The notes under the pieces were generated by a model. The model did not search any database. It worked only from the letters and a program-made list of their open reading frames with translations, and was not told the origin of the DNA. 64,000 nucleotides of DNA from Minisyncoccota bacterium (lineage in GTDB: Bacteria > Patescibacteriota > Minisyncoccia > UBA6257 > GWB1-50-10), in contig JAYRXE010000037.1 of the NCBI GenBank assembly GCA_041917695.1, forward strand, positions 370,582 to 434,581. Direction: 5' to 3'. The stretch's first letter is position 1; every line of letters begins with the position of its first letter. The translations under genes were made by a program, and so were the position numbers. Shown here piece by piece: positions 16,366-63,220 of this stretch.

Positions 16366-17583
16366 CTAGTTTTCCTGGGTCGCGGAAACCATTTCCCGCC
16401 TTTCTTTCTCGACACTTCTTTTATACGAATGGTAGCTCCATATACCGACAATGAGGGAGAGACCTCCCAGCATAATCAGCGCACTCAGCAAATCCGAGCG
16501 CTGCAAGAGGAACCCGAACCCTGCCATCCCAACTATCGCCACCAAGCTGGACGATGATGACTGCACCGAAAGGACGGTTGCACGGATATCGCTCTGAATA
16601 TGTCGGTTCACGTAGTCACCCACGAACGGGCGCATAAATCCGCGGCTTACGTTTTGTATCAGCACGAGGTACGCGAAAGGCCATATAGGCACAAGCCCCA
16701 TCAGAAGGATCGGCACGGCCACGCAGAGAATCAGGCCAAGCACGCTTCTCCGCTCCCCGATAAGGGCTTCTAGCTTGTAAGCATAGTGGCTGAAAAACCA
16801 CGCCACGATGTTTAACAGGAAGAAAATGACGCCATATTGGTAGATCGCGATGCCAACAAACTCAAAATACGGATTGTACGTAAAGAACCATAGCTTTGAG
16901 GTGGTGCCGATAAGGGCCGCGAATCCCAACATCCACCGCACCGCCCTAGAGCGAAATGCGAATGTGGCGCCCCGTTTCAAGGTTTCGAGCTGCCGCTGCA
17001 CGGAATAATGCTCAACCCGCGCCGGCTCTTTCCAGAAGAACGTAGCAACAAGCGGCACAAGGGTAAACGGCAGACTAAGGTACAGCGGAAGCCGGAGGCT
17101 GATATCTGCCAGGAAACCGGTCGCAAGCGAACAGAACGCAATAAGGAACATCCGCAGTCCGATAGCCTTCCCCTCTATCCTTTTGTATTCGTTTTCCCTC
17201 TTCGCTTCCTTCAGCGTATCGTAGAGAAACGCAGAATCTGCCCCCGACTGCATTGAGAAACCGACAGCCCAGAGAATATTGCCGATCCACGCTTCAAGCG
17301 GATTCGCCATCGTTGCAAAAAAGTAGATACTCCCCAAAAGGAAGACTCTCCCAATGCTGATTGTCTTCTTTCTTCCCAAAATGTCGGCTAATGCGCCCAT
17401 CGGTATTTCAAGGCACACCAGTACCCCAATCACCACCGATTCCATGAGGTAGATCTCAGCCAGCGACATAAAGGCCAGTTTTTGAAGAGATGTGATGAGA
17501 ATGGGGCCCCAAAAAAGCGGCTCGTTAAAAATCGCATACAGCTGGTACAGCAGGATATTTCGTTTGTATTCGGTGTCTTTCAT
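16366..17583 (-). CDS. MFS transporter
   Basis: 12 predicted TM helices and GRKKTISIGR between TM2 and TM3, an MFS motif-A-like loop. Confidence 0.8.
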   Translation of the reverse strand: MKDTEYKRNILLYQLYAIFNEPLFWGPILITSLQKLAFMSLAEIYLMESVVIGVLVCLEIPMGALADILGRKKTISIGRVFLLGSIYFFATMANPLEAWIGNILWAVGFSMQSGADSAFLYDTLKEAKRENEYKRIEGKAIGLRMFLIAFCSLATGFLADISLRLPLYLSLPFTLVPLVATFFWKEPARVEHYSVQRQLETLKRGATFAFRSRAVRWMLGFAALIGTTSKLWFFTYNPYFEFVGIAIYQYGVIFFLLNIVAWFFSHYAYKLEALIGERRSVLGLILCVAVPILLMGLVPIWPFAYLVLIQNVSRGFMRPFVGDYVNRHIQSDIRATVLSVQSSSSSLVAIVGMAGFGFLLQRSDLLSALIMLGGLSLIVGIWSYHSYKRSVEKERREMVSATQEN

Positions 17584-17621
17584 TGCTGAAATCCTTTCTT
17601 ATTAAGTTGTTAAATAATTTT

Positions 17622-17659
17622 CTGAATAAAAAACCTCGGCTTTCTATCCAGCCGAGGTT
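17622..17659 (-). terminator. rho-independent terminator (minus strand) after kinase/GNAT operon
   Basis: On minus strand: aacctcggct-ggatagaa-agccgaggtt followed by ttttttatt. Confidence 0.65.
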
Positions 17660-17986
17660 TCTCTAAGTGATTTTTCGTATTGTTTAAGCGGTCCTACAAA
17701 AATCACGGCTGAATACAAAGCGATTGGTGTGATTCGTCCAAATGGAAAAAGACACCCCAAGTTTCGGCGTTGCGTAGCACGTATTCATGTGATTTTTGTT
17801 CAACTCTTTCATGCGTATATGATACATATATTGTGCATTTTGTCAATTTTTTTCGGCTTCTGAACTCTGCATTACTTGGCTGAGCATCTGGAATGGCCAA
17901 GCGAGGAAAAAGTGCAAAAACTACTATTCAAGAATGGTGGTTTTTCTATCGAGGGTTAGATACTTCACCCTAATAACTTCTTAATC

Positions 17987-18997
17987 TCAAAGAAGGGAAA
18001 AATGGAGTCTCTCTATGAACTCTTCTTTATGACTATCCAAATAGACCATATTCCTTATAGAGGGCGGATAGGTGAGATCTGAACGAAAATCGTGCTCCTC
18101 ATAATGCGCTCGTTCCCGCCATACGGAAAACATTTTAAAAAAAACAGCTTCTACTCCTTTGCGCAATTCTTCTTTTTCGAAAGGATATTCTTCAAAGTAT
18201 GCCTTCGCAAAAATAGCCGCTTGCTCAAAACCTTCTTCCGTATACGCATACTCAAAGCAAGAGATATAGAGCGATCGGGCAAATTCATACATTCGCGGCA
18301 TGGGGCCGGACATATCAAGGTCAAAAATGGCAGAGATGCTCATGTTTTCTTTGAAAAACATATTTGAGGGATGATAATCCCCGTGGCCAAGCGTCAATTT
18401 TTCGAATGTGAGCTGCTTGATATCTTCAGCGTGCTTCAAAACCATCTTCTTTTTTAAGGCAAGTCCTTCCTCCGCGATGTGGTCGTATTCCGTTTTAGAA
18501 GCAAGGTGGGAAATTTTCAAAAGAAAGCGGTCGATATCGGCAATCAACTTATCTGGAGAAGGTGAGAGAAAATAAGTAGAAACATCTGCATAAGACCCCT
18601 TAATGCCGTCTTTTGTAAGAAGATGCATCTTTGCAAGCATCTCCCCCATATTTCTCAGAGCATCCCTTGGAGCTTTCCCGAAGTCAAAACTCTGGCCACT
18701 TACAAAGGGATACAGGACATACGCCGCCCCTTCCTGAAACACATGCGATGCGTCGTCTCTTGTCCGAATCGGAGTGAGCACAGGAATGCCGTGGGAGCAA
18801 AAATATTCCTCGACCCTTTTTATGGATTCTATTCTTCCCCCTCCGGATGCCCTGTGCATTTTTAAAAAATAAAAGCCACCAGACGTTTCTATTTTCCAAT
18901 TCTTGCTAGACATCCCAATAGGAATCAGGGAGATCCTCAAAACATCTCCGATATTCCATTCACGAAGAATTTTTATGATTGCGGAGTCAGTCATCAA
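17987..18997 (-). CDS. phosphotransferase-family kinase (APH/homoserine-kinase-II/choline-kinase fold)
   Basis: LGHGDYHPSNMFF is the HGDxxxxN catalytic loop, and FDLDMSG is the D-x-D/E metal site. The substrate cannot be assigned from sequence. Confidence 0.75.
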   Translation of the reverse strand: MMTDSAIIKILREWNIGDVLRISLIPIGMSSKNWKIETSGGFYFLKMHRASGGGRIESIKRVEEYFCSHGIPVLTPIRTRDDASHVFQEGAAYVLYPFVSGQSFDFGKAPRDALRNMGEMLAKMHLLTKDGIKGSYADVSTYFLSPSPDKLIADIDRFLLKISHLASKTEYDHIAEEGLALKKKMVLKHAEDIKQLTFEKLTLGHGDYHPSNMFFKENMSISAIFDLDMSGPMPRMYEFARSLYISCFEYAYTEEGFEQAAIFAKAYFEEYPFEKEELRKGVEAVFFKMFSVWRERAHYEEHDFRSDLTYPPSIRNMVYLDSHKEEFIERLHFSLL

Positions 18998-19457
18998 TCC
19001 CTTTCAAATTATTTTCAAAAATCTTGCAAAAACCGCCAGATTCATCCCTCGTCTCTCGGCGAATTTTCCACCCTCGTTTCCCGAGAAATTTTTCTATCAG
19101 CGGATTATCCGTGCATACTAAAACAATTTTCTCCCCTCTTTTCCTAAGATACTCCATCCGTTTTTCGTAAAACTCACGATAAATGCCTTGCTCGCGGTAT
19201 TCCGGGAGAACCACCGCATCCGCAAGCCACGGCAGGCCATTGTCTATCTCGTCAGGACTTGCCACACGAGTTATTGCCCCAAATCCTGCAAGCTTTTCAC
19301 CTTCAAAACACCCGATGATATATTCGGATTCTTTGAGTTCATCCCACGCGTTCACGGGGTACTCAAGTCCCCAAGAATGCTCATGGATGATGTCCGCACA
19401 CCGTTTTGCAAGCGGATTGGTCGTTTTTATTTTCCGATACTCAAGCCTCGTGTTCAT
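18987..19457 (-). CDS. GNAT family N-acetyltransferase
   Basis: ~156 aa with a GNAT motif A-like region. Overlaps the kinase gene by 11 nt, so an operon is likely. Confidence 0.7.
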   Translation of the reverse strand: MNTRLEYRKIKTTNPLAKRCADIIHEHSWGLEYPVNAWDELKESEYIIGCFEGEKLAGFGAITRVASPDEIDNGLPWLADAVVLPEYREQGIYREFYEKRMEYLRKRGEKIVLVCTDNPLIEKFLGKRGWKIRRETRDESGGFCKIFENNLKGIDD

Positions 19458-19496
19458 AAGATCTTTTTGACCCTGGGGTACATACGCAGCATATTT

Positions 19497-20195
19497 TTAC
19501 CCGTTGTGGTCTGCTGGCAAATCAATATCCTTAATTCTGTTCGCAACGTTCGTCTCATGAATAATCTCTACCCACATCACTTTCGGGGAAGGGAGCGTGA
19601 CAATTTCAAGTCCTGCCCCAAGGATCTTAGAGTGATTATACTGGAGAATAGTATAATCACGAGAAGCTATCATTGAAAGGAAATGGTTGTCTTTTCTAAG
19701 ATAGGCATATCGTTTACCGGCCTTTTCATCCAACTTTTCACCCTTTTCAAAGGTTAAAACACATTTGCGAAGATTGCCTTTCGCGTACCCCTGAACGATA
19801 TCTACATATTTTGAATTTAAAATATCATCGTTATCAATCCTAGATGTAATGAACCACTCATTGTCATATTTGTTTTCAGAGACAAAACTGGCGAAATCAA
19901 AAAATTCGTTATCATCAAAATATAAGTCAATAAACATGTACACCTCCTTCAATGTCCGGATTCTTTCTTTAAAGACTTCAGGGGTCTGCTTGTGGAAAAG
20001 TATTATCCATTGGAAATTCTGGGATGTCTGGCTCTGAAGCGAAGGAATCGTGTATTGCTCAAAAAGACGGAAGCGCTCCGATAAATAATCTGGATCCAAG
20101 ATTAAATCCATTGGATTGCGTTCTGGATCTCTCGGACTACAACCAAATTTTTTCCGTATATTAAATCTGGTTAATACAAAATGTTTATATTCCAT
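19497..20195 (-). CDS. putative glycosyltransferase (rhamnosyltransferase-like family)
   Basis: N-terminal HFVLTRFNIR and ITSRIDNDDIL resemble the Rhamno_transf/GT-A-like family. The assignment is tentative. Confidence 0.4.
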   Translation of the reverse strand: MEYKHFVLTRFNIRKKFGCSPRDPERNPMDLILDPDYLSERFRLFEQYTIPSLQSQTSQNFQWIILFHKQTPEVFKERIRTLKEVYMFIDLYFDDNEFFDFASFVSENKYDNEWFITSRIDNDDILNSKYVDIVQGYAKGNLRKCVLTFEKGEKLDEKAGKRYAYLRKDNHFLSMIASRDYTILQYNHSKILGAGLEIVTLPSPKVMWVEIIHETNVANRIKDIDLPADHNG

Positions 20196-20235
20196 GGTAA
20201 AAATGAAACTTGTTCGAATGCTGGGGTACCCTCTT

Positions 20236-20763
20236 TCATATGCGTGAATGGTTGGTCATATTTTGCCGCCGCAAAAGCTTTAAGGCCATTTTGTGAGAAT
20301 CATCTGAGTAGGTAGATTGAACGCATTCCTCGATAACATACGTGAAAAATCCCGCATCAAAGGCATCAAAGGCCGTAGCGAGCACGCAATCCTCAGTATC
20401 TAATCCTACGATATGCACCTCCCTTATTTTCTTACTTTTCAAAAAAGCGGTCAGCTTCTTATTCCCTTGGAAGGCCGACCTCGTATCCTTTTGAACCTTG
20501 AAGGACTTATAGGGCTTTAGAGCCGTGGCAATGGACTCCACGGTCTCTGTATACCTTCCTTTCGGGCAAATCCATTTCTGCTGTTTTTTCCACAGGGAAC
20601 CCTTTTCGGCGTGAAAATTCACCTCAACATACGCATCGTATTTTACCGAATCTAGAAGTTTTAAAATATTCTTAACGATATAACCATTCCCTCTATTCAA
20701 GAATGAATCTTGTACATCCACGACAATAAGAGCCTTTTTGCGAGAATTTTCGGAAAATTTCAT
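20236..20763 (-). CDS. isochorismatase-family cysteine hydrolase
   Basis: ALIVVDVQ (catalytic Asp), K.., VHIVGLDTEDCVLATAFDAFDAGF (catalytic Cys) form the D-K-C triad arrangement. Confidence 0.8.
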   Translation of the reverse strand: MKFSENSRKKALIVVDVQDSFLNRGNGYIVKNILKLLDSVKYDAYVEVNFHAEKGSLWKKQQKWICPKGRYTETVESIATALKPYKSFKVQKDTRSAFQGNKKLTAFLKSKKIREVHIVGLDTEDCVLATAFDAFDAGFFTYVIEECVQSTYSDDSHKMALKLLRRQNMTNHSRI

Positions 20764-20804
20764 GTTGGCTCTTAATTCTTCATTATCTTACGAGATTGAT
20801 ATGA

Positions 20805-21608
20805 TTATTTCCTATCATCATCAAATAATTCATAGAAGGCAACAACGCTGAAAGGGCCCACAAAGCCCACAAAGAATAACTCTTCCCAGGGTATAGGATT
20901 GAACCCGAAAAAATTGATGGGCGGAAGAAAATAAACCCCAGTAAATACCCATTGGTTGAGAAATGTTGCGGTAATTTCAAAGAAAAAAGTGATGGCGAAA
21001 AAGTACGCTACAAGAGATAATGCTCGACGAAGAAACTGCGGAAAATGCCACAGAAAAATTAACGTGGGAAGAGCGAAGAAAACAGTTCCAAGAATCAAAT
21101 AAGTGTATGGCCCCTCCCACACAAAAAGATGCTTCCCACCTGATGCAAGAATCAAGAAAAAGGCGCTTAATACGAATAATGCAATAGAAATGAAATACCA
21201 GAGGCGCTTATCCGCCAATTCACGCTTCCCTTTATCGAGCATGATTTCATAGCCGACAACGAGCGTGAAGACGCCGCTCGCCATCCAGAAAAAATCCTCG
21301 ATGGGAATAACTCCGAGAAACCTCGATGGAAAAAGGCTATACGGCACATACCATACGCCGCTTGTGGTACCGATATAATCGATGATAATGGCAAAAGGTA
21401 ATGAAATGATGAACGTAAAGATTGCTCCTTTCGCTACTTGCCACAGCCGTCCAAAACGGAGGATTAAATAAATTCCTGGGAGGCTATAAAACAGGAAAAT
21501 AGAAAGAATATACGGGGCGTGAAATACAAGGGACACTAAGGAGCTTAAGAAAGGTAAAAGCGCCAACACGAAAAAATCGTATACGCTTAGACGCTTCAAA
21601 ATCTCCAT
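20805..21608 (-). CDS. integral membrane protein, hypothetical
   Basis: 7-8 TM helices, aromatic-rich; no confident family. Confidence 0.45.
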   Translation of the reverse strand: MEILKRLSVYDFFVLALLPFLSSLVSLVFHAPYILSIFLFYSLPGIYLILRFGRLWQVAKGAIFTFIISLPFAIIIDYIGTTSGVWYVPYSLFPSRFLGVIPIEDFFWMASGVFTLVVGYEIMLDKGKRELADKRLWYFISIALFVLSAFFLILASGGKHLFVWEGPYTYLILGTVFFALPTLIFLWHFPQFLRRALSLVAYFFAITFFFEITATFLNQWVFTGVYFLPPINFFGFNPIPWEELFFVGFVGPFSVVAFYELFDDDRK

Positions 21609-21695: not shown

Positions 21696-21846
21696 AATCT
21701 TACGTCGCTTCGCTCCCTGAAACCCAGCGGTTTCAGGGCATCCGCTACGGGAAAACTCCCGTTTCCCCGACCCCCTTCCCGTTCGAATCCCCTCTATTCC
21801 ACATCAAAGCAGAAACACCGGCATAAAGCTGGCGTTTCTGTTTTTG

Positions 21847-21917
21847 CTGGGGAGCAGGGATTCGAACCCCAATACTCGCCTCCAAAGGGCGATGTCCTAC
21901 CATTAGACGACTCCCCA
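21847..21917 (-). tRNA. tRNA-Gln (anticodon TTG)
   Basis: Reverse complement folds as a cloverleaf: acceptor TGGGGAG/CTCCCCA (7 bp), D-arm GTCT-AATGGTA-GGAC, anticodon arm TCGCC-CTTTGGA-GGCGA (U33, anticodon UUG), T-arm with TTCGAAT loop, discriminator G. CCA is not encoded. Confidence 0.7.
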
Positions 21918-22033: not shown

Positions 22034-22062
22034 CAAATAAAAAGCCCCACTATGGGGGCTTT
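22034..22062 (-). terminator. rho-independent terminator (minus strand) downstream of peptide ORF
   Basis: Minus strand: aaagcccc-catagt-ggggcttt followed by ttatttgcg. Also hairpin plus T-run on the + strand. Confidence 0.7.
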
Positions 22063-22082
22063 GATTTTTACCTGTATGACGG

Positions 22083-22223
22083 TTACTTCCTCTTGTAACA
22101 GTTGTCGCACGGCTGTGAGAAACAGCTGTCACCCTCTTCGCACTGAGCGCCAACCATCGGATTAACCTTCAGGTCGCTCTTTGCGTTCGAGTCTTTCACT
22201 ATGGAGAGAATCTCGGGTTTCAA
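22083..22223 (-). CDS. Cys-rich precursor-like peptide (46 aa) downstream of radical-SAM/SPASM gene
   Basis: aaaggaggtga RBS 8 nt before TTG. Own translation: (M)KPEILSIVKDSNAKSDLKVNPMVGAQCEEGDSCFSQPCDNCYKRK, with 4 Cys in the C-terminal 15 residues. It lies 33 nt after the maturase stop. Below the ORF-track cutoff. Confidence 0.5.
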   Translation of the reverse strand: MKPEILSIVKDSNAKSDLKVNPMVGAQCEEGDSCFSQPCDNCYKRK

Positions 22224-22256
22224 TGAAATCACCTCCTTTCTTTTCCGTATTGGTGA

Positions 22257-23558
22257 TTAAAGCGCTGATTCAACAATACCCCTTTGGGATAAAATCCGCA
22301 AAAAGGCCTCTGCGTCTTCCCGCTCTATGGGAAATGCCTGTGCCATCGTATCGGTGCTGAATGTTTTCTCATCCATCATGTATTGCACCAGACGCATCGC
22401 ATCATTATTCAGAAGCGCGGATCCGCCAGAGACGAATACCACTCCCCCAAATTCTTCATCGCGCACGCGAACGCCGTTCGCAAGCTTGAATTCGCCAGGC
22501 GGCGTATCAGCATTTCTCGCTATCTTCTGCGGCAAGACGATGTCATAGGGACCACTCATGAAAGGGTCATTTCCATGGATATCTCCCAGATATTTCGCTT
22601 CCATTCTGCACCCGGCGCTGCACATCTCTATGTAATCACATGCATCGCAAGCGGGCGGAATATATACGCCCGCGCGCCAGTCTTCCATACTCTCCCATGC
22701 CTTTAAGAGACCATCCTGAAACACGTTGCCGTATACCATATCGGCGCGGGAACAGGGACGGACATCCCCATTAGAACCGATGGTGCAGCTCGTAACGCCG
22801 GCACCGCAGTTCCTGCGTGCAAAGACATGATACTTGCCCACATCGCCAATCAAGCAGAGCGGATAGCATTCCAACACATCAACGGCAATTCCCAATTCTT
22901 TCTGAATGTCCGTAAGCATCGCCATGCTTTTGCGCACCTCTTCTACGGTTAGAATCTCCTTATCAAAGTTGCGGCTATTCAGCGCCGGCGAAGCTTTCGT
23001 TGCGCAAAATCCATCAATGCCGTGCTTTACAAGCACTTCTGCCGTTTCCCTAAGATACGAGAAATTGCGCTTGCTGAGCACCATATTCGTACTCACCAAA
23101 AAACCAGCATGGACAGCAATGTCGATTCCTCTCATGGTACGCGCCCATGCGCCCTTTCGCCCCGCAATTTCATCATGCACCGCTTCGTTTCCGCATAAGA
23201 CAGAAACAAGCATTTTCCTCAATCCTGCATTCCATAAGGCCTGCGCGATCGGTTCGGTAAGGAGCGCCACATTCGAGTTGAGGCCTACTTCGATTCCCGC
23301 CTTATCCAATTCAGCGATGGCAGGAGGAAGCATAGACCAGTAAATAAGGGGTTCGCCGCCGGTAATGGTAACCGATGAAACCTGGAGCGAAATAAGATCG
23401 CGTACGATTTGCATCAGCTCGTCTTCCGTAAGGCGCGAGAGGACTTTCGGCCCGCTCTTTTCCCGCCAGTGGTTATAGCAATGGAAACAATCCATATTGC
23501 AGGCTTCGGTGATTTCCACCTGGACCGACAAGGGGCCCTTTAACTTCCGGTACTTCAT
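22257..23558 (-). CDS. radical SAM / SPASM-domain peptide-modifying enzyme
   Basis: EITEACNMDCFHCYN is the CxxxCxxC radical-SAM cluster motif. GGEPL SAM-binding segment. C-terminal CGAGVTSC...PACDACDYIEMCSAGC is the SPASM auxiliary-cluster pattern. Confidence 0.85.
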   Translation of the reverse strand: MKYRKLKGPLSVQVEITEACNMDCFHCYNHWREKSGPKVLSRLTEDELMQIVRDLISLQVSSVTITGGEPLIYWSMLPPAIAELDKAGIEVGLNSNVALLTEPIAQALWNAGLRKMLVSVLCGNEAVHDEIAGRKGAWARTMRGIDIAVHAGFLVSTNMVLSKRNFSYLRETAEVLVKHGIDGFCATKASPALNSRNFDKEILTVEEVRKSMAMLTDIQKELGIAVDVLECYPLCLIGDVGKYHVFARRNCGAGVTSCTIGSNGDVRPCSRADMVYGNVFQDGLLKAWESMEDWRAGVYIPPACDACDYIEMCSAGCRMEAKYLGDIHGNDPFMSGPYDIVLPQKIARNADTPPGEFKLANGVRVRDEEFGGVVFVSGGSALLNNDAMRLVQYMMDEKTFSTDTMAQAFPIEREDAEAFLRILSQRGIVESAL

Positions 23559-23673
23559 AAAAACCTCCGTATTAAATTAGTAGTTTACTGCCCATACCAT
23601 ACAAATATTTCAGAATCCCGTCAATCATCCCCTTCCCAAATAAAAATAGCAGATCCGTATCGGCATCTGCTAT

Positions 23674-26316
23674 TTATTGTTTTTCATATATCCCTTCGTT
23701 TATCCACCATTCATTTATGTCTTTGTACGCGATAAGCCGCGGATACTCCTCCACAAAATCGGGCGGCATTTTAAAACGCACCCGTTCCGTGAACTGCATC
23801 TCGTCCAGCCATTTGAGGGTCTTTTGCTTCGCAAATTTTCCCCCCGCATCTACGTCAAAGCCAATGCATACGTTTTCACGAACGCTCAATGCATGCTGGA
23901 GGGCAAGATAGTTAAACGTGCCTCCAAATGCTCCTGTGTCCGTGTGTTCAAGCTGAATCATCGTTAGGGCGTCTATAACCGCTTCCATAAGGTTAAAGTC
24001 CTTATAGCGAGGTCCTGTAGCCAATGCATCAGCATTCCACATGCCTTGCGGCACGCCGCTTAAGTGAACTAAGGTCTTGCGGTGCCGCATTTCCTTAGGA
24101 CAGTTTTTCCGCACATCACGCCCGTAAAAGCTCGTGATCCTTCCCCCGCTAAATCCGAGAGGGAAAACCAACTTGTTTCGCAAGACGAGATACGGCAAAC
24201 CATCTTTGGTAGCCACATCGCTCAAAGACTTCCCACGCCGTTTTAGAAGCGGGAAAAGCCCTTGGGTTTCACGCAAACTCCCATTGAAATTCACCAAACC
24301 GTAATGCACCAATTCATCGAACTCAAAAAGATCCAATAATGTTTCAATCGCATCATTGCTGCAGAATCCTGCTCCGTATGCGCGCGCCAGTTCTGGATCA
24401 AGCCGCCGTTCGTTTTCGAGATATTCCTTTCCCGGACTATCCTTGAAGAAAACTTGGAAGACTTGTTGCATCAGCGTCATCGCTTTCACATGAAAAGCCG
24501 GGATTTTTTCCAAGCTTTCAAGGGAATTGATGCGTTGCCTTCGCAAAACATCTATGCGCACCTCAGGGGGCATGGATTCATATGCAAAGGGCATCCACGT
24601 ATCGCACACATAGCACCGAGCATAGCCACGCCTCATGAAAAGCATCATGGAGGGGTTTTTATCCTCATGCCACGGCAGGACGCACTGGATGAAACCGCCG
24701 CGCTCCATACTGAAATGGCGTGTCCGTATATCCCCTTCTTCCAAGGCATGGAAGAACGCATCGAGATGGAAACGGTACGGCGAGTGCCGTCCGCTTGCCG
24801 TTTCGACCCGTACTTTCTCAACGATTTTTGCTTCATCAAGAAAGATCCGCTGGGACTTGATAACTTCCGCTATCTCATCATGCGGATGCAACGAGGTTGA
24901 TTGGACATCAATCAGCGTTTCATTAACACAGAGGGAACCATTCTGGCCGTTCTGCTTCCCATTTTTCCCATTCTTCCCTTTTTTGAGATGGATGAGTTCC
25001 TGGATGGCATTGCTGATGGCATTTCCCCGATCGCGAATCAAGGCTTTGGTCTGACTGTAGCCGTAGCGGCTTCCAATCGTCTCCATAAATACCTCGTGCT
25101 GTTCAGGGCCATCGACGTGAATGCGGTATTCAACCGGGGCAATACTGGGGAAAAAATACACCAGTTTCGCATCAGTGAATTTCACGTTTCCGTTCCAGAT
25201 GTCTTTCTGCTTATGCATGAGCGCATAATCCAGGTTTGCGAGAGCGATGTACTTCTTGAGCTGCACCTTATGCTCCGCAATAGGCTCTCCATTGATTTCA
25301 GTCGGCAGGATCACATGACGCGCATGCAAGCCATCACCCGTTGCAAATTTGAATTCATAGAATTCAACGTCAACGCGGGCTCCATGAAAAATCCTTTCCA
25401 GTTCGGAAAGAACCTGATTCAAGGAGTGAAACGTCATCTTTTGGAGGCTATTTACCTGGAGACGCTGTTTTTCCGTAGGAGTTTTACCCCCTATGGCAGT
25501 CACTAAAATCAAATCCATACGCCATCCTCCCAACCCATAGTGGTATGAAAGAATGGGTATCTCCCTCAGACCGCCATGGAGGCCGATCTTTTGGACGTAT
25601 GAAATGATCGTCGCAAGCGTCATCACCGTCAGGGTGAGATAGTACTGGAAATCAGAATGGTGTTGCTTCCGCTCCAGAAGGGCGCGGCCCGATTCGCCAA
25701 TAAGCGGCATGAGAAGCTTAAAGAGTGCACGGAATTTATTCCTATCCAGTTTCAGATAGTTTCTTTCCCAGTTCTTCCTTCCCAGCTGGCGAGCGAGAAA
25801 CTTCCATTTCTTTTTCACCTGTCGTGCAAAATCACGGGTAATACGGGGAATAGAGACAAAGCCTGATTCGAAAAGTGGCTGAGGAGCCGGAAATAGCGAT
25901 AGCTCCTCACACGTTTTTTGCTTATCTCCAACCTGACCGGTGAGTATCCTCTGGGCAGCAGCGTGTAAAAACACCCCGAACCCTCGAATATACTCCTCGT
26001 TATTCCCTGATTCTTCTTCAAACTGCCTGCGCAATGAAGCAAGTGAACGAGTATATCGGCCATCTTTCATATCAACCGACGTGATTCTTTGCTTTTCCGC
26101 GGGAGGGTGCGCTTTATGAATCTCATAGAGCTTCCCTACCGCTTCTTCGAGGCTTCGAGCAATCCGGCACTGGACCAAGATTCGCGCGAAACCCATCACA
26201 TCCGCTGGTGCGCGTTCGATCCATACCTTGAAGGCATGGTCGTCCTTATAGCGCTCAGTAAGCGCTAGAAGATCACCATAGGGAGTGAGCGTTGCATTGT
26301 TGAATAATGAGCTCAT
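23674..26316 (-). CDS. 880-aa fusion: unknown ~540-aa N-terminal region + DnaG-type primase core (CHC2 zinc finger + TOPRIM), no C-terminal helicase-binding domain
   Basis: CVLPWHEDKNPSMMLFMRRGYARCYVCDTW is a CHC2 primase zinc finger. LMEAVIDAL (TOPRIM Glu) and CIGFDVDAGGKFA (TOPRIM DxD) lie ~260 aa downstream, the same spacing as DnaG. Low-complexity linker KGKNGKNGKQNGQNG. The N-terminal 540 aa has no motif I can assign. Confidence 0.7.
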   Translation of the reverse strand: MSSLFNNATLTPYGDLLALTERYKDDHAFKVWIERAPADVMGFARILVQCRIARSLEEAVGKLYEIHKAHPPAEKQRITSVDMKDGRYTRSLASLRRQFEEESGNNEEYIRGFGVFLHAAAQRILTGQVGDKQKTCEELSLFPAPQPLFESGFVSIPRITRDFARQVKKKWKFLARQLGRKNWERNYLKLDRNKFRALFKLLMPLIGESGRALLERKQHHSDFQYYLTLTVMTLATIISYVQKIGLHGGLREIPILSYHYGLGGWRMDLILVTAIGGKTPTEKQRLQVNSLQKMTFHSLNQVLSELERIFHGARVDVEFYEFKFATGDGLHARHVILPTEINGEPIAEHKVQLKKYIALANLDYALMHKQKDIWNGNVKFTDAKLVYFFPSIAPVEYRIHVDGPEQHEVFMETIGSRYGYSQTKALIRDRGNAISNAIQELIHLKKGKNGKNGKQNGQNGSLCVNETLIDVQSTSLHPHDEIAEVIKSQRIFLDEAKIVEKVRVETASGRHSPYRFHLDAFFHALEEGDIRTRHFSMERGGFIQCVLPWHEDKNPSMMLFMRRGYARCYVCDTWMPFAYESMPPEVRIDVLRRQRINSLESLEKIPAFHVKAMTLMQQVFQVFFKDSPGKEYLENERRLDPELARAYGAGFCSNDAIETLLDLFEFDELVHYGLVNFNGSLRETQGLFPLLKRRGKSLSDVATKDGLPYLVLRNKLVFPLGFSGGRITSFYGRDVRKNCPKEMRHRKTLVHLSGVPQGMWNADALATGPRYKDFNLMEAVIDALTMIQLEHTDTGAFGGTFNYLALQHALSVRENVCIGFDVDAGGKFAKQKTLKWLDEMQFTERVRFKMPPDFVEEYPRLIAYKDINEWWINEGIYEKQ

Positions 26317-31109: not shown

Positions 31110-31137
31110 AAACCCCCGCATGGGGGTTTTATTTATT
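31110..31137 (+). terminator. rho-independent terminator
   Basis: aaacccccgca-tgggggtttt followed by atttattt. Confidence 0.7.
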
Positions 31138-32881
31138 TAGTCTTTTTGGCAATGCGCCGCACTTTCTTCTTTGTCGCCTGTTCCGCAGCGGAAAGGCTTT
31201 TTTGGAGCTTCGTCCGTATCCGCTCCTCTTCCCGCGTGAGATCGCGCTTGGTCCGCACGCCATCAAGGGTTTTTACGGCAGACGCTACATCCCGCGCCAC
31301 TCCCTGGAAAATCGTATGGATATCGGTATCCGTATCCTCAAGAATACCCGACGCGTGGCGTTTCAAGACCGCTGCATGCCGGAGGAAACGGTTCACGAGG
31401 AGCGTGAAGAGAAGGAGACAGGCCGCGATAATGATGCCAATCGTAAGATATTGGACCAAACGGCTTCCGAACTTTGCGAGGAACGGCGCGTGGACACCGA
31501 CCGTCACGGCTTCGGTAAGAGCGCTTTCCTCCCCGGCATCGTTTACGGCTTTAAACCGGAACGTGTACGCGCCTTCCCGAAGTTTCTCGCTGAAAACAAA
31601 CGTGAATTTCCCTTCAGTATCCGCAGTCGTGCGCTCGATCTTCAGGTTTTCACCGTTCCAATCCGTATAGGCCTCAATCGCCGCTCCGGGCACCGTTTCG
31701 CCGCGAATGGCGAGGAGCGTATCGGCATACATTTCCTTCGGATAATCCGTAACTTTCGGCGTCGGCAAGCCTTCCGTTTCGAATTCCGCGAATGCCGATG
31801 CGTAATTGCCGGCCTTGTCTACTGCGCGCATCACGAGGACGTGCCGTCCCGGCGAAAGCGAGGGAGTCTCATAGCGGTGGTCGCCGTTGTCGCTCCAGGT
31901 GCTTGTCGCCCCGCCGTCTATCTGGAATTCATAATGATCGATGCCGGAGACGGTATCGGACGCACTCACGAGGAATGCCCTCCGCGAACGCGAGACCGGC
32001 TTCTGCGGATCCTCGACGATGGAAACGGTCGGTTTTTCCGCATCAATCCTGAGCGAGAAATGCTCAAGAGGACCCCATCCGGAGGCCGTACGGGCCTGAG
32101 CGTGGAAATACCATATTCCATTGCTCAAATCGGCTATTTCGCGGGAGGATATCGGCGGTTCGTAAACGCTGGTCGGCGTACTCTTCGGCGACGTATCGGC
32201 AAGAAGCCTCACTGCGGTCGCGCCTCCGGGCAATTCCCACGACAGTTTCGCCACCGTCGATGCGTACCATTTGGACGGATCGGGATGCGTCACTGACGTT
32301 ATTTTCAGAGCGCGGGAAGAAGAAGCCGGCGTGGGAACAGACTCGGTCTTTTTCGGCTCAGGTTCCGCAGGCGCCTCCGTTTCGGGAGTTTGAGAAACCG
32401 CCGTTATGCGTACCGATGCAGGAGCCGTACCCGTCAGAATATTCGTGCCTTGGCCGTCATTCGCAAGAACGCTCGCGTTGGAAAAGCCGATGGTTCCCGA
32501 ACCTGCCGAGCGGGCGCGGAACGTTACCGCCATAATCTTCCCCGCAGAACCGGTATAGCCGGGGTTTAGAACAACGCCTTCAAACTCAGCGGTCCCTCCC
32601 ACATTTGAGTATGACGGGTCTTGCGCCCACAACGAGAATATTGAGCCCGCCTTCGATATGGACGTAACCTGGAAAAGGTCCGCAGGAAATGTGAGAACGC
32701 CCGACGCGGCATTCATTGCCTCAGCGGGCGTTGAGACGAGAACGGAAAGGGTGAACGTATCGCCCACCTCGACAGCTCGAGAAGCGGGAGAAAGACTGAG
32801 CGTCGCAGCGTAAGCGATTGCTATGGGAGAAAAAACTCCCGCAGTTAAAACAAAGACAACTAATACGGCAAAACGATTCAT
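31133..32881 (-). CDS. cell-surface protein with N-terminal cohesin-like domain and C-terminal TM anchor
   Basis: Signal peptide, then LSLSPASRAVEVGDTFTLSVLV...FSNASVLANDGQGTNIL (cohesin-like beta module), a Pro/Thr-rich linker, beta-rich repeats, C-terminal TM (LTIGIIIAACLLLFTLL) and a basic tail. Confidence 0.5.
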   Translation of the reverse strand: MNRFAVLVVFVLTAGVFSPIAIAYAATLSLSPASRAVEVGDTFTLSVLVSTPAEAMNAASGVLTFPADLFQVTSISKAGSIFSLWAQDPSYSNVGGTAEFEGVVLNPGYTGSAGKIMAVTFRARSAGSGTIGFSNASVLANDGQGTNILTGTAPASVRITAVSQTPETEAPAEPEPKKTESVPTPASSSRALKITSVTHPDPSKWYASTVAKLSWELPGGATAVRLLADTSPKSTPTSVYEPPISSREIADLSNGIWYFHAQARTASGWGPLEHFSLRIDAEKPTVSIVEDPQKPVSRSRRAFLVSASDTVSGIDHYEFQIDGGATSTWSDNGDHRYETPSLSPGRHVLVMRAVDKAGNYASAFAEFETEGLPTPKVTDYPKEMYADTLLAIRGETVPGAAIEAYTDWNGENLKIERTTADTEGKFTFVFSEKLREGAYTFRFKAVNDAGEESALTEAVTVGVHAPFLAKFGSRLVQYLTIGIIIAACLLLFTLLVNRFLRHAAVLKRHASGILEDTDTDIHTIFQGVARDVASAVKTLDGVRTKRDLTREEERIRTKLQKSLSAAEQATKKKVRRIAKKTK

Positions 32882-33796: not shown

Positions 33797-35017
33797 TTAT
33801 CCGGACCAGTTGTACGCCATGATGCTGAAATCGACAAGCGTCACTTTTCCATCGCCGTTCAAATCAACTTTTGCCGGCGGAGCGGAACGCTTGTACCAGT
33901 ATGCCAAGACGGAAAAGTCGATGAGGTTCACCTTCCCATCCCCTGAAACGTCGGACTTCCCCGCCTTCGTGGTTTTTGCCGCCAAGACGGTCTTATCGCC
34001 GACCTTAAACGCGAGCGGGGCACTTTGTTGGCTCACTGCTCCGGAGAGCGCGGATTTTGACCGCGCCGTATGGTCGCCGTCCTCGAGGACGCCGGTATTG
34101 AACGCATACAAGTACACGCCGTCCTTGTCCGCCTTGGCCGTACCAAAATGCTCTTCATCGGAACTCACGGTAAGCGTAATTTGGCTTTCGGGGGCGCTTT
34201 GCCCGAAAAGGGTTATAGTCTCTCCGCGCTTTACCTCAACCTTGTCGGCGCCGATGGTCGGCGCGATAAAAATACCCGAAACTTGCGTCGCCGCCCCCGC
34301 CGTAATGCTGATGGGAAATGTTGATAAGGATGACCGGTATCCGTTCTTGTCTTCGCCGTACACGGAGAAAATATAATTCCCTCCGCTCAAGTTCGATATC
34401 GAAATACTGAACTGGCCGTCGGTTCCCACGCGCGACGAACCCGCCACCGATCCGTCCTTCAAAACGGTGACGTCGCTTCCGGGATACGCCCGCCCGATAA
34501 GGGTAACGCTCGTCGTGGGAGGCGGTACGCTGTTTCCCCCGCTTCCGCCACCTCCTCCTCCACCCCCGCCTCCTCCGCCTCCTCCGCTACCGCCTCCACC
34601 CGTGCTCCCCGCACTCGTCGTTGCGCTTGCCTCATCCGACGACGTGCTCGAACCCGCATCATTGAAAGCGCGCACGCGATAAAAATACGTGGTCGAAGGA
34701 AGGAGTCCTGTTCGGGTGTAGCTCGTGGCATTCGCGGGACGCGAGTCTATTTGCGTGAAAAATCCTCCGCTCCCCACTTTTTCTTCTACGTAAAAACCGT
34801 CTTCGTTGTTCGAATTGTCACTCCAACTCAAATTTATTTGTGACGCGGAAACCGACGTCGCGACAAGCGATGTCGGTTCAAGCGGAAGAACGACGATGCG
34901 AAGCGTGAGCTCGAAACCATCCGAAACCGTCTGGGCATGCGAAAAGAAAGGGAAAGCGAGTCCTATGCAAAACCCAAAAACAAGGAGTAGCGCGTTTTTT
35001 CTGTAAAACGGGCTCAC
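33797..35017 (-). CDS. surface protein: signal anchor, FN3 domain, poly-Gly tract, Ig-like repeats, two C-terminal dockerin repeats
   Basis: FN3: PTSLVATSVSASQINLSWS...YFYRVRAFNDAGSS. (G)n run of ~25 Gly. Dockerin repeats DVSGDGKVNLIDFSVLAYWY and DLNGDGKVTLVDFSIMAYNW. Start set at GTG 35017, just after the upstream gene's stop; the track ORF extends to 35122. Confidence 0.65.
   Translation of the reverse strand: MSPFYRKNALLLVFGFCIGLAFPFFSHAQTVSDGFELTLRIVVLPLEPTSLVATSVSASQINLSWSDNSNNEDGFYVEEKVGSGGFFTQIDSRPANATSYTRTGLLPSTTYFYRVRAFNDAGSSTSSDEASATTSAGSTGGGGSGGGGGGGGGGGGGGSGGNSVPPPTTSVTLIGRAYPGSDVTVLKDGSVAGSSRVGTDGQFSISISNLSGGNYIFSVYGEDKNGYRSSLSTFPISITAGAATQVSGIFIAPTIGADKVEVKRGETITLFGQSAPESQITLTVSSDEEHFGTAKADKDGVYLYAFNTGVLEDGDHTARSKSALSGAVSQQSAPLAFKVGDKTVLAAKTTKAGKSDVSGDGKVNLIDFSVLAYWYKRSAPPAKVDLNGDGKVTLVDFSIMAYNWSG
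34540..34610. repeat. CCN/GGN simple-sequence tract encoding poly-Gly
   Basis: cctcctcctccacccccgcctcctccgcctcctccgctaccgcctccacc on + strand. Confidence 0.8.
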
Positions 35018-35022
35018 GAATC

Positions 35023-35922
35023 CTATTTCTTCACCCGAACGATCCTGAATTTCTTTTTGAGATTTCCCAAGCCGAACCAAACAAGCAGTCCGAACGCCAC
35101 GACGGCAAGCGCTTCCTGCCATGGAAAGGCGAAGAAGGTTATTGTCTTCGTAACCGCTCCGCCGGGCATGGAGGACGTGAGGGTTGCCGTGAGAGGACCA
35201 AAGGCATAACGGCCCGCCACCTGCGCCTCAAAGGTACGCGTGTGGCCGGGAAAAACGATACGCGGCTCTATTGCAACCGATTTTTCGGGATAAAAAGGGC
35301 CTTTAATCGAGATGGAGCTCTCGGGATTGAAATGCGTATTACCCGTGTTTTCAAGTTTTGCCGTAAAAGAAAAGGGTCCGTGCGAAACATACGACGCGGG
35401 GCCAGTGAAAGAATCTATTTTACCGGTCTTTACGGTCGCGCCCGGAACTTCGATGAGCATCACCGTACCGACGCGCCCCGAAATGCCCACTCCCCCGTTC
35501 GGACCTGAAATACCGCGGAAAAGTATGGAACCGTAATGGCCTCCCGGCTCTGCATTTGCGGGAACATTAACCGTAAACGGAATTTGGCGGCGTTCCTGGG
35601 GTCCGAGCGTGAATTCTGTGCGGTCGATGGAAACCCACGAGGAAATGCCGTGCGGTATTTCCATGTCGATAAGATCTATCGAGCCTTCGTCGCCGCCGGC
35701 GATATTCTCGACCTCTGGATGCACGCCGATTGAGAAATCATTCGGATTGATGACGGTAATGGTGTCGGCATACGATTCGCCCTGAGCCACCGTCACATTG
35801 AACTTCACCGGATACAGCGAGATGCCCACCTGGGCGTTGCCAACCCCGGGGAATAAAAGGCACCCACCAAGAAAGAGGGCGCCAAATGATAAAACTGAGA
35901 AAATTCCAACGTGTGATTTCAT
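35023..35922 (-). CDS. secreted beta-rich protein with C-terminal TM anchor, hypothetical
   Basis: Start moved to ATG 35922 (MKSHVGIFSVLSFGALFLGG signal). C-terminal TM ALAVVAFGLLVWFGL plus KKKFRIVRVKK. Confidence 0.5.
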   Translation of the reverse strand: MKSHVGIFSVLSFGALFLGGCLLFPGVGNAQVGISLYPVKFNVTVAQGESYADTITVINPNDFSIGVHPEVENIAGGDEGSIDLIDMEIPHGISSWVSIDRTEFTLGPQERRQIPFTVNVPANAEPGGHYGSILFRGISGPNGGVGISGRVGTVMLIEVPGATVKTGKIDSFTGPASYVSHGPFSFTAKLENTGNTHFNPESSISIKGPFYPEKSVAIEPRIVFPGHTRTFEAQVAGRYAFGPLTATLTSSMPGGAVTKTITFFAFPWQEALAVVAFGLLVWFGLGNLKKKFRIVRVKK

Positions 35923-60633: not shown

Positions 60634-62436
60634 TTAAGCGGCGCTTTTGGCGCTTCGTTTCGCGCGGGTGCGGTCGACTTCGGTGAGGAATTCCTTTCGC
60701 AGCCGTACGCTTTTCGGCGTCACCTCCAAATACTCGTCTTCGTTCATGATCTCAAGCCCGCGTTCAAGCGTGAGTTCGATGGGCGGCGTGAGCATAATCG
60801 CTTCGTCGGCTCCCTTTGAGCGCATATTTGTCAGCTCCTTCCCTTTGATGGGATTTACCGTCATATCGTCCCCCTTCGACACGTTTCCGATCACCATGCC
60901 CTCGTATACTTCCGTACCCGGCCCGATATACAAGGCTCCCCGTTCCTGCAGGTTCCACAACGAGAACGCCAGGGCTTTCCCGGACGCCATCGAAACCATC
61001 GAACCGACTGAACGCTTCACCACCTCTCCGGCGTGCGGCTTGAAACCGATGACGCGGCTGGAAAGAAGGCCCTCTCCCCGCGTATCAATAATGAATTCAC
61101 CCCGATAGCCGAGGAAACCGCGCGTCGGCATTTCAAAAATAAGGCGGGTCATCGCGCCGTGGGGTTCCATGGCGGAAAGGATGCCTTTGCGCTTCGAGAG
61201 CTTTTCGATGACGACTCCGGAGAACGTCTCCGGCACGTCCACGATGACCTCCTCAAACGGCTCGAGGCGGATACCGCCTTCTTCTTTCATGATGACCTGC
61301 GGCTGGGACACCTGCATTTCATACCCTTCCCGCCGCATGTTTTCGAGCAGGATGGCGATGTGCAGTTCACCGCGCCCGTAGACCTTGTACGAATCGGTGC
61401 CGGCAAAATCCACTTTGAGCCCCACGTTGACCTCGAGCTCCCGTTCCAGGCGCCGCTTCAGTTCGCGCGTCGTGACGAACTTTCCTTCCCGGCCGGCAAA
61501 CGGCGAGTTGTTCACCAAAAAATTCAAAGAAATGGTCGGCTCATCGATGGCAATGGCGGGCAACGGCTCGACATCTTCGCCGCTACCGATGGTTTCGCCG
61601 ATATAAATGTCCGGCAGACCCGCAATCATGACGATATCCCCCGCTTCGGCGGCGGGCGCCTCCTTTCGCTCAAGTCCTTCAAAGGTAAAAATCTTCGTGA
61701 GCTTTCCTTCGCGCATCTCTCCGGTAGCCTTTTTAACAAAAACCTTCGCGCCATTTTCCACCCGGCCCTCGTACACGCGCCCGATTGCCAGGCGCCCCAA
61801 AAAATTATCGTATGCAAGATTGAACGGCTGCATCCGGAACGGGCGCGCGGCGAGTTCGGGCGTCGTCGCCGGAGCGACGTGGCGCATGATCAAATCGAGG
61901 AGCGGCGTTAAATCTTTAGACTCATCGGTGAGCTTCGCCTGGGCGACGCCGGCCTTCCCGATTGCATAGACGTACGGAAAATCCAGCTGTGCGTCGTTCG
62001 CGCCCAGATCCATAAAAAGTTCCAGGACTTTGTCATGCGCCCAGTCGGGACGCGCGGCGGGCTTGTCTATCTTATTGATGACCACGATGGGACGAAGTCC
62101 GAGCTCAAGCGATTTCTTCAAAACGAATTTTGTCTGGGGCATGGGTCCCTCCTGCGCGTCGACGACCAAAAGGACGGAGTCGATGGACCGGAGCACCCGT
62201 TCAACCTCGGAACCGAAATCGGCGTGCCCCGGAGTGTCAACGATGTTGATTTTCGTGCCCTTATAGAAGATGGACGTATTCTTGGAATAAATAGTAATTC
62301 CCCGCTCCCGTTCGAGATCGTTCGAATCCATGCTTACCCCTTCCTTCACCGCTCCCGACTGGCGCATCAAAGCGTCGGTGAGCGCCGTCTTTCCGTGGTC
62401 CACATGGGCGATGATGGCGATATTCCTGATTTCCAT
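60634..62436 (-). CDS. typA: translational GTPase TypA/BipA
   Basis: [22 protein letters not shown] (G1), DTPGHADF (G3), NKIDK (G4), and EF-G-like domains for a total of 600 aa. Start at internal ATG 62436. Confidence 0.9.
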
Positions 62437-62512
62437 AAAAAAATCCCGTGTACGGGAGCCTTCCTCTTGGGCAGAGATTAACACAAAAAATAGCGTGAGG
62501 CAATGCTTCGCC

Positions 62513-63220
62513 CTACCGCTCCATTTCAAGGACGTTCGTGAGGCGCGCCTTTCGCGCAGCCGCGAGGCGCAAGATGACGCCGGCGAGAAGTACGCCGATG
62601 GCATCAAACATCAGGTCATTTGCGGTATCGGTGCCCAGTCCCAGCCGGTTTGAACCGAAGACGAGATCCTCAGCATACTCCTCGATCTCATACAACGCTC
62701 CCGTTGTCATCGCAAGCGCCATGGCAAAGAAAATGGCGATTCGGAGCTTTTCATGAATCGAAAGCGCCCCCTGCCCGCGGGGCATGGCAAAGCTTGAAAC
62801 GATGACGAAAAAGACGATGCACGCAACGCCGCTTGAAAAAAGATGGAGCGCGGAGTCCCACCAAAAGAACCGCTCATAGAGATGGAACATGTCCCCTCCC
62901 GCGTCGAGCGCCAGGGAGAGGGCGGCGAGAACCCACAGCGAGGAGTGGAGCGCCGCACCGCGATGGAGCGCGTAGCGATACGCAATGAATTCCAAAATTC
63001 CCCACACGGCAAGCGCCGTCAAAAAAAGCCCAAGCCACGTGAACTGGATATCGGACCGGATTATCCCCGCCATGTTGAGCGCTTCGAAAACCAGCAACGC
63101 GCCGAAAAAAATGCGAATGGAATTCTTCACCGTCCAAAATGGATGCAATTCCCGCTCAAGAAGCGAGGAGGAAAGGGGGCGTATCGCGCTGGGATCCAGG
63201 AGAGGGAGTTTTGTCCTCAT
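62513..63220 (-). CDS. integral membrane protein, hypothetical
   Basis: 6-7 TM helices; no family. Confidence 0.45.
   Translation of the reverse strand: MRTKLPLLDPSAIRPLSSSLLERELHPFWTVKNSIRIFFGALLVFEALNMAGIIRSDIQFTWLGLFLTALAVWGILEFIAYRYALHRGAALHSSLWVLAALSLALDAGGDMFHLYERFFWWDSALHLFSSGVACIVFFVIVSSFAMPRGQGALSIHEKLRIAIFFAMALAMTTGALYEIEEYAEDLVFGSNRLGLGTDTANDLMFDAIGVLLAGVILRLAAARKARLTNVLEMER

Follow-up and report, generated by a model that had tools for sequence, protein, structure and literature searches.

A probable two-gene cassette of a radical S-adenosylmethionine maturase and a Cys-rich precursor peptide, from a family widespread in Patescibacteria

A 64,000-nucleotide stretch of contig JAYRXE010000037.1 (assembly GCA_041917695.1, Minisyncoccota bacterium), hereafter the window, to which all coordinates refer, was found to contain two adjacent genes on the minus strand: one encoding a radical S-adenosylmethionine (SAM) enzyme with a SPASM domain and, downstream of it, one encoding a small Cys-rich peptide (Table 1). 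The first-pass annotation, made from the sequence alone, had read this arrangement as a putative SCIFF-like cluster for a ribosomally synthesised peptide that is modified after translation (RiPP). All of the parts that it described were present, namely the 433-aa enzyme, the 46-codon open reading frame (ORF) 33 nt downstream, the ribosome-binding site, the 8-nt spacer, the TTG start and the terminator. The spacer between AGGAGG and TTG is TGATTTCA. The translated 46-aa peptide is MKPEILSIVKDSNAKSDLKVNPMVGAQCEEGDSCFSQPCDNCYKRK, with Cys at positions 28, 34, 39 and 42 (C-x5-C-x4-C-x2-C), all four within the last 19 residues. A mechanical ORF list gives a 49-aa version of the peptide whose GTG start falls inside the Shine-Dalgarno (SD) site, and the exact 46-aa TTG product has been called as a gene on two other public-assembly contigs (P0121). 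When ORFs of 30 to 90 aa on both strands of the 64 kb were screened, the peptide was the sole one with a strong SD site, at least four Cys in the last 25 residues and none earlier. Matches to the promoter consensus were no commoner in the window than in shuffled sequence, and the site upstream of the enzyme gene is weak evidence. The next gene after the peptide terminator is a tRNA-Gln (21846..21917).

Table 1. Features of the gene pair and its signals (RRE, RiPP recognition element).
Feature	Coordinates	Strand	Remarks
Promoter-like site TTGACG, 17 nt, TATGGT	23596..23624	-	38 nt before enzyme start codon; consensus match 9/12
Radical SAM/SPASM enzyme with C-terminal RRE domain, predicted peptide maturase	22257..23558	-	433 aa; Pfam Radical_SAM, SPASM, Fer4_12
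Radical SAM cluster motif CX3CX2C of enzyme	23478..23501	-	invariant in 31 aligned family members
SPASM region, residues 235-317	22608..22856	-	seven invariant Cys: C235, C251, C269, C304, C307, C313, C317
C-terminal domain, residues 352-433, predicted RRE fold (beta strands, then three helices)	22260..22505	-	
Gap between enzyme stop codon and small ORF	22224..22256	-	33 nt
Shine-Dalgarno AGGAGG	22232..22237	-	8 nt before TTG start; direct sequence reading
Putative precursor peptide ORF, 46 codons	22083..22223	-	TTG start at 22223
Peptide leader, residues 1-27, including P-E-I-L-S-I-V motif	22143..22223	-	N-terminus M-x-P-x-[IV]-L-S-[IV] common to peptides of the five closest loci
Peptide core, residues 28-46, CEEGDSCFSQPCDNCYKRK, four Cys	22086..22142	-	C-[FY]-x-x-[PS]-C-[DN] motif common to clade peptides
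Peptide stop codon	22083..22085	-	sequence reading
Intrinsic terminator, stem AAAGCCCC/GGGGCTTT, 6-nt loop, then T-run	22034..22062	-	stem 22041..22062; -17.4 kcal/mol, z = -2.5

Pfam profiles matched the enzyme with Radical_SAM (E = 2e-25), SPASM (E = 9e-7, 29.5 bits against a cut-off of 21.5, residues 251-307) and Fer4_12. The cluster-binding cysteines are intact: the radical SAM motif is C20-x3-C24-x2-C27 and the C-terminal motif is C304-x2-C307-x5-C313-x3-C317. In the alignment of 31 family members the SPASM region holds C251-x12-G264-x4-C269 and the C-x2-C-x5-C-x3-C motif, and an R-x-E-x-F-G motif in the C-terminal extension is invariant. The enzyme had 530 homologues at E up to 0.001, most of the full-length ones being about 430-480 aa. 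Among the best 120 of these, every one carrying an organism name belonged to the candidate phyla radiation (CPR)/Patescibacteria, with Staskawicz-, Pace-, Levy- and Saccharibacteria, WWE3 and Vampirococcus as the named lineages.

The AlphaFold2 model of the whole enzyme (predicted local distance difference test score, pLDDT, 91) was closest to the solved folds of SuiB (E = 7e-17, template modelling score 0.6, 18% identity) and SkfB (E = 4e-16), with BlsE, MoaA, anSME, TigE and PqqE behind them. By sequence profile against solved structures, the scores were 106 bits for SkfB, 87 for PqqE, 77 for SuiB, 48 for anSME and 39 for CteB. Residues 352-433 modelled alone (pLDDT 94) gave beta strands followed by three helices, and this C-terminal domain is, according to the model, an RRE fold that may bind the leader of the peptide. 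Its identity was visible because folds were compared and did not show in sequence searches; Pfam and PDB profile searches (PqqD by sequence) returned weak winged-helix matches only. As far as is known, the RRE is N-terminal in characterised SPASM maturases, as in the CteB and SuiB structures. Proteusin epimerases, in which SPASM clusters are absent, are reported to have a C-terminal RRE (PMC8326336). The first-pass annotation had named grouping with anSME or the cofactor maturases as a finding that would speak against its proposal; by sequence (SkfB, PqqE, SuiB), by fold (SuiB, SkfB) and by its RRE fold, the enzyme sides with the peptide-modifying SPASM enzymes. No NCBIfam model came near its cut-off among the 25 best matches of the enzyme, all of which lay far below. 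The best, NirJ2 (116 bits against a cut-off of 500), was not taken for heme d1 or heme b biosynthesis, as it reflects common SPASM architecture and not orthology. NCBIfam and Pfam placed neither gene in any family past generic domains.

Relatives were collected by a scan of one genome per species, in which 274 stretches encoded an enzyme relative and 80 loci were kept. A small Cys/Asp-rich ORF adjoins the orthologous enzyme gene in 71 of the 80 loci. In 66 it lies downstream on the same strand, mostly at no more than about 200 nt from the aligned enzyme end, and in 5 it lies upstream. Most of these ORFs have strong SD sites. Five of the nine loci without a small ORF are cut by contig ends and one has a disrupted enzyme gene. 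The absence of the ORF beside orthologous enzymes, which had been put forward as the observation that would overturn the proposed pair, is thus not what was found.

The peptides are divided into a Cys-free leader and a Cys-rich core. Pooled leaders contain 0% Cys over 2149 residues, and pooled cores contain 25% Cys and 17% Asp. A hydrophobic-x-[S/T-like]-hydrophobic-hydrophobic motif was found in 54 of 72 leaders (shuffled sequences: mean 16, maximum 25), with LSIV, GFETIL, GYVSLM and GIVSLL among its instances. The core classes include CDCYDCDYNCEECD, ACYCNCGCACYVTG, CQCVNCQSCDNKCNK, a Pro-rich CISPxPPLPPPCIDRPPPPC type and others; the number of Cys per peptide ranges from 3 to 10 or more, and the cores are otherwise hypervariable. 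Both the leader type and the core class track clades of the enzyme tree. In the clade of the window (L001-L005), the peptides share the N-terminus and core motif given in Table 1, and the enzymes of these relatives are 46-53% identical to that of the window. The shared N-terminus means that the start position of the peptide is conserved. Conservation of the TTG start itself, which the first-pass annotation had proposed to check, held for the position and not for the codon: relatives have ATG or GTG there, and L001-L005 have ATG. Counts of synonymous and non-synonymous differences were informative for equal-length pairs only, ungapped comparisons of diverged pairs being meaningless and ignored; the peptides of the closely related L015 and L018 differ by 17 synonymous and 8 non-synonymous changes in 42 codons, which speaks for coding constraint. 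A single near-identical contig was available, L081, with an enzyme 98% identical; it agrees exactly with the window through peptide codon 16 and then diverges completely over its last 48 nt to the contig end (L081:2962-3009 against window 22128..22175), which makes it uninformative for the core. The assembly probably broke here at the end of the contig, or the core may have been replaced at strain level.

When the neighbouring proteins of the 80 loci were clustered, two conserved families besides the enzyme were obtained, and no other conserved neighbours. Family c2 (28 loci) has a representative matching Peptidase_MA_2 and an HExxH motif in 29 of 29 members, followed in the sampled members by a W-L-x-E-G motif. 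Family c1 (44 loci) matches no Pfam family; 46 of its 47 members have HExxH, and its relationship to c2 is weak (hhalign probability 81%). In 67 of 80 loci a c1 or c2 peptidase gene is found no further than 1.3 kb from the enzyme, and 62 loci, L002 and L014 among them, contain all three genes. The earlier statement that no exporter or protease is adjacent was correct for the window, where neither adjoins the gene pair. Approximately seven loci with adequate flanks likewise have no peptidase, so that a minority of the family is of the two-gene form, with L012, L037 and L051 as examples. The two-gene layout is accordingly present as described, but most relatives add an HExxH metallopeptidase gene.

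Several loci depart from the common gene order or content. Approximately 15 of the 80 contain an additional radical SAM paralogue, which is full length in some and short (about 325-365 aa) in others. Second enzyme genes lie 1-3 kb from the main one in L004, L005, L007, L014, L020, L031, L034, L038, L058, L069, L077 and L079, and some paralogue loci also have a second Cys-rich small ORF (L020, ending in CSFCECKCDCTYCPCSVCKI; L005, ending in NCYCYGPAYPPCCG), which hints that the system also has tandem or two-enzyme forms. In L008, L011 and L040, the last a metagenome-assembled genome (MAG) of Levybacteria, the order is enzyme, peptidase, peptide, with the peptide 757-775 nt downstream of the enzyme. 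The core in these three loci is Pro/Cys-rich (CISPxPPLPPPCIDRPPPPCVGRPPPPCYG) and quite unlike the acidic cores of other loci.

The composition of the cores gave some indication of the chemistry. Across a set of 71 distinct cores, Cys was followed immediately by D/E in 197 cases compared to 93 in shuffles (z = 14.5) and by Y/F/W in 67 cases compared to 26 (z = 9.4), z-scores which, like all those given here for the cores, overstate independence as the sequences are phylogenetically related. CC pairs were nearly absent in the same set (2 observed, 96 expected). The characterised SPASM enzymes for Cys-rich peptides that one review covers (AlbA, SkfB, CteB, Tte1186, PapB/freyrasin and NxxcB) make sulfur-to-carbon (S-C) bridges, and QhpD makes them on a protein (PMC8326336). 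Asp, Glu, Asn and Thr are among the known thioether acceptors (PMC8326336, PMC9413430). Because Cys is the sole constant feature of the cores and the reviewed SPASM enzymes on Cys-rich peptides make S-C bridges, a thioether-bridged product is the best guess, although our confidence in it is evenly divided.

Conserved pairing, the affinity of the enzyme and the RRE fold support the proposal of the first-pass annotation that a RiPP maturase/precursor pair is present in a CPR organism. That the enzyme and the small ORF form such a pair is very probable. It is also probable, with somewhat less assurance, that they constitute a two-gene RiPP cassette belonging to a CPR/Patescibacteria-wide family and working as follows. 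The enzyme and the 46-residue precursor would be co-transcribed, with the transcript ending at the hairpin past the peptide gene. The C-terminal RRE may dock the Cys-free leader through its N-terminal PEILSIV motif. The radical SAM cluster would split S-adenosylmethionine to yield a 5'-deoxyadenosyl radical, which would take a hydrogen from a core residue, and a core Cys placed by the SPASM auxiliary Fe-S clusters would then form an intramolecular thioether bridge. The four Cys of the window peptide could give up to four bridges, the likely acceptors being Asp, Glu, Asn or aromatic residues flanking the core cysteines. In most relatives the leader would be removed by the adjacent HExxH zinc peptidase; since the window has no peptidase gene, leader cleavage there would need a peptidase encoded elsewhere, or may not occur.

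A number of observations weigh against this interpretation. The window core has just four Cys and a KRK end, unlike its acidic relatives. The canonical last SPASM Cys downstream of CX3C is missing from the enzyme, and the upstream C235 is invariant instead. Hidden Markov models (HMMs) of both families detected no c1 or c2 peptidase in a six-frame translation of the window, and its non-overlapping ORFs, counted from 90 aa upwards, contain no HExxH motif either. No exporter was conserved in any locus in the clustering of neighbours of the 80 loci. The PapB-type C-x3-D/E spacing was not enriched in the cores (z = 1.6), and the C-[D/E] and C-[Y/F/W] pattern at +1 fits no characterised thioether motif, so that the modification could, judging from the core sequences, be a different one.

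This last point leads to the alternative that survives best, although it is rather unlikely: a RiPP pair whose enzyme would introduce something else than a thioether, such as a C-C or C-O cross-link to the Tyr, Phe or Trp after Cys, an epimerisation or an oxidation of the Cys side chain. The cores are enriched at +1 in C-[D/E] and C-[Y/F/W] with CC nearly absent, a pattern that differs from the C-x3-D and N-x-x-C motifs already known. A C-C bond is the product both of SuiB, the best fold match (Lys-Trp), and of PqqE, the second-best sequence match (Glu-Tyr), and no curated maturase family reaches its cut-off. However, Cys is the one constant of hypervariable cores, which points to Cys as the reacting partner, and some core classes are without any aromatic residue, e.g. 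CQCVNCQSCDNKCNK. The reviewed SPASM enzymes characterised on Cys-rich peptides also give S-C bridges (PMC8326336). If true, a non-thioether modification would make this a chemically new RiPP class.

That the small protein is instead a metal- or Fe-S-binding partner of the enzyme, either metallothionein-like or an electron donor, and not its substrate is very unlikely. Cys/Asp-rich C-x-C and C-x2-C sequences do bind metals, and radical SAM enzymes need reductants. Nevertheless, a Cys-free, motif-bearing leader followed by a hypervariable core is the pattern of a RiPP and not of a folded partner, the RRE fold of the enzyme is that of a leader-binding module, a peptidase is co-encoded in most loci, and no match to ferredoxin, rubredoxin or metallothionein families was obtained in Pfam or NCBIfam. 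It is highly improbable that the peptide gives rise to a small redox cofactor, with the peptidase excising the modified residues, as with PqqA/PqqE or MftA/MftC. The better sequence matches do include PqqE and the mycofactocin maturase, many organisms with minimal genomes have the system, and a peptidase is usually adjacent while an exporter is not conserved. Cofactor precursors, however, have a nearly invariant core, whereas the cores here are wholly different between clades (CDCYDCDYNCEECD, ACYCNCGCACYVTG, CISPxPPLPPPC and others), and PqqB/C and MftD/E/F are absent from the conserved neighbourhood. The PQQ and mycofactocin systems were rejected on the hypervariable cores and on the scores of their maturase models (PqqE 76 against a cut-off of 381, mycofactocin maturase 88 against 265). 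Finally, a chance reading frame in the 3' untranslated region, which a short ORF with a TTG start and no family match could suggest, is effectively refuted by the strong SD site at an ideal distance, the uniqueness of the ORF in the 64-kb window by simple criteria, the homologous N-terminus and core motif in relatives with 46-53% identical enzymes, the pairing kept in 71 of 80 loci and the calling of the same product on two other contigs.

Comparison with characterised systems shows what this one has in common with them and where it stands apart. The SCIFF systems (CteA/CteB and Tte1186a/Tte1186; TIGR03973/TIGR03974; ranthipeptides of Clostridia) likewise consist of a compact SPASM enzyme and a Cys-rich precursor of approximately 45 residues, and we know of no dedicated exporter or protease in them. 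The SCIFF core is conserved; in contrast, the family cores here are hypervariable and Asp-rich, and most relatives add the HExxH peptidase. The window peptide (E up to 0.1) and eight related-locus peptides (E up to 1) had no match in the NCBIfam library, which presumably includes the SCIFF peptide model TIGR03973, and the SCIFF maturase model was not among the 25 best NCBIfam matches of the enzyme. CteB (5wgg) aligns over the N-terminal radical SAM core only (39 bits), and its RRE is N-terminal whereas that of the enzyme is predicted to be C-terminal. The SCIFF-like label of the first-pass annotation therefore stands as an analogy only, as neither gene matches SCIFF, PapB or another curated family. 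Like the present system, SCIFF peptides show wide conservation inside a single lineage, and this speaks against their being simple antibiotics (PMC8326336).

The PapB/freyrasin system (PapA, a ranthipeptide with six Cys-Asp beta-thioethers) also combines a Cys/Asp-rich core with a SPASM maturase, and Asp and Glu are proven thioether acceptors (PMC9413430, PMC8326336). It differs in that its model NF047865 gave 65 bits against a cut-off of 340 and in that C-D/E at +1, rather than C-x3-D/E, is enriched here. SkfB, the best sequence match among solved structures (19% identity) and the second-best fold, also has Cys-containing substrates, but the sactipeptide synthases scored far below their cut-offs (AlbA 60 bits against 850, StsB 59 against 625). 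In sactipeptide cores the donor Cys and the acceptors lie in separate halves of a hairpin, unlike the family cores here, which interleave Cys with acidic residues; the RRE or leader-binding domain of the sactipeptide synthases is N-terminal. SuiB, the streptide Lys-Trp maturase and best fold match, shares SPASM and a leader-binding RRE; its RRE is N-terminal, its substrate has no Cys and its product is a C-C bond. anSME was rejected, since its score was lower than those of SkfB, PqqE and SuiB. Its target is a C/S-x-P-x-R motif, which the window peptide does not contain, and it is not known to have an RRE, whereas the enzyme here shows an RRE fold; no sulfatase was found among the Pfam-scanned window proteins or the conserved neighbour clusters. 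The proteusin epimerases of the PoyD type are likewise radical SAM peptide modifiers with a C-terminal RRE (PMC8326336), but they have no SPASM clusters, act on long nitrile-hydratase-like precursors and were not among the sequence matches to solved structures. QhpD, from the QhpD/QhpC system that forms Cys-Asp and Cys-Glu thioethers in quinohemoprotein amine dehydrogenase (QHNDH), is a SPASM enzyme that joins Cys to the beta or gamma carbon of Asp/Glu (PMC8326336); its substrate is an enzyme subunit and not a leader-bearing hypervariable peptide, and no QHNDH genes were found in the conserved neighbourhood here. In its way of working the system resembles those of the SCIFF/ranthipeptides and sactipeptides, yet it belongs to none of them. 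It is set apart by the lack of a family model, the predicted C-terminal RRE, a leader motif of its own, the C-[D/E/Y] cores, the usual gluzincin-like peptidase and a CPR-centred distribution.

The CPR-like host suggested by the first-pass annotation was confirmed by the TypA/BipA of the window, whose nearest named relatives (73-81% identity) are Patescibacteria. The TypA/BipA ORF (60634..62607, minus strand; 657 aa, TTG start) is identical to a database protein (P0122) along the 600 residues called there. It exceeds its 600-aa database twins by approximately 57 residues, so that translation probably starts at an internal codon. Some cassette loci come from assemblies with other labels: MAGs labelled Gammaproteobacteria (L007, L043, L045, L050, L052 and L072), Methanoregula (L051), Saprospiraceae (L037), Rhodospirillaceae (L067), an archaeon (L071) and Omnitrophica (L078). 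Wrong labels or contaminated bins may account for these loci, or the cassette may truly occur outside the CPR.

The gene directly upstream of the cassette (23674..26316, minus strand) encodes an 880-aa protein with a DnaG-like zinc ribbon (residues 545-572) and a Toprim domain (776-849) in its C-terminal third. Both matches scored weakly (phrog_47 primase, E = 1e-10; dnaG, 40 bits with a cut-off of 284), nothing matched the N-terminal stretch of approximately 540 residues, and the gene was not conserved beside the cassette in other loci. A mobile-element origin of the cassette was rejected, as PHROGs gave generic primase and radical SAM matches only and the primase-like gene is not conserved. 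Further away, 31133..32881 and 33797..35122 (both minus strand) encode two proteins predicted to lie at the surface, with domains of the bacterial Ig-like, fibronectin type III and dockerin types, near which three large ORFs (447, 535 and 471 aa) match no Pfam family. Past the tRNA-Gln, the region 16366..21608 (minus strand) encodes a lycopene-cyclase-domain membrane protein, an isochorismatase-family hydrolase and a putative rhamnosyl transferase; the next three ORFs appear, by translation alone, to be GNAT-type acetyltransferase-like, phosphotransferase-like and a 405-aa MFS-transporter-like membrane protein. The genes of 16366..21608 were not conserved beside the cassette in related loci.

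The cassette of enzyme, peptide and usually peptidase occurs in at least 274 matching stretches of the one-genome-per-species collection, across many CPR lineages. No description of the system was found in the full-text literature, the coverage of which leaves out most subscription journals, and this modified-peptide system is apparently undescribed. It is small enough for direct heterologous reconstitution, which makes its chemistry and role readily testable, and its many core classes form a natural library for the substrate tolerance of SPASM enzymes. It is possible, though doubtful at present, that it represents an ancient RiPP class which spans the CPR, has a chemistry of its own and escapes the present rules of genome mining. 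In such a class the enzyme would act on repeated C-[D/E/Y] dipeptides to give a densely cross-linked, highly acidic peptide. Such a peptide could hold a new type of cross-link or be a metal-binding scaffold, and would serve the episymbiotic lifestyle, for example through host attachment, signalling or metal acquisition, rather than as a conventional antibiotic. Surveys of biosynthetic gene clusters in CPR/Patescibacteria have reported few or no clusters, at 'very low levels' (bioRxiv 10.64898/2026.04.17.719132), and the retention of the cassette in such reduced genomes suggests a function linked to the lifestyle of these organisms.

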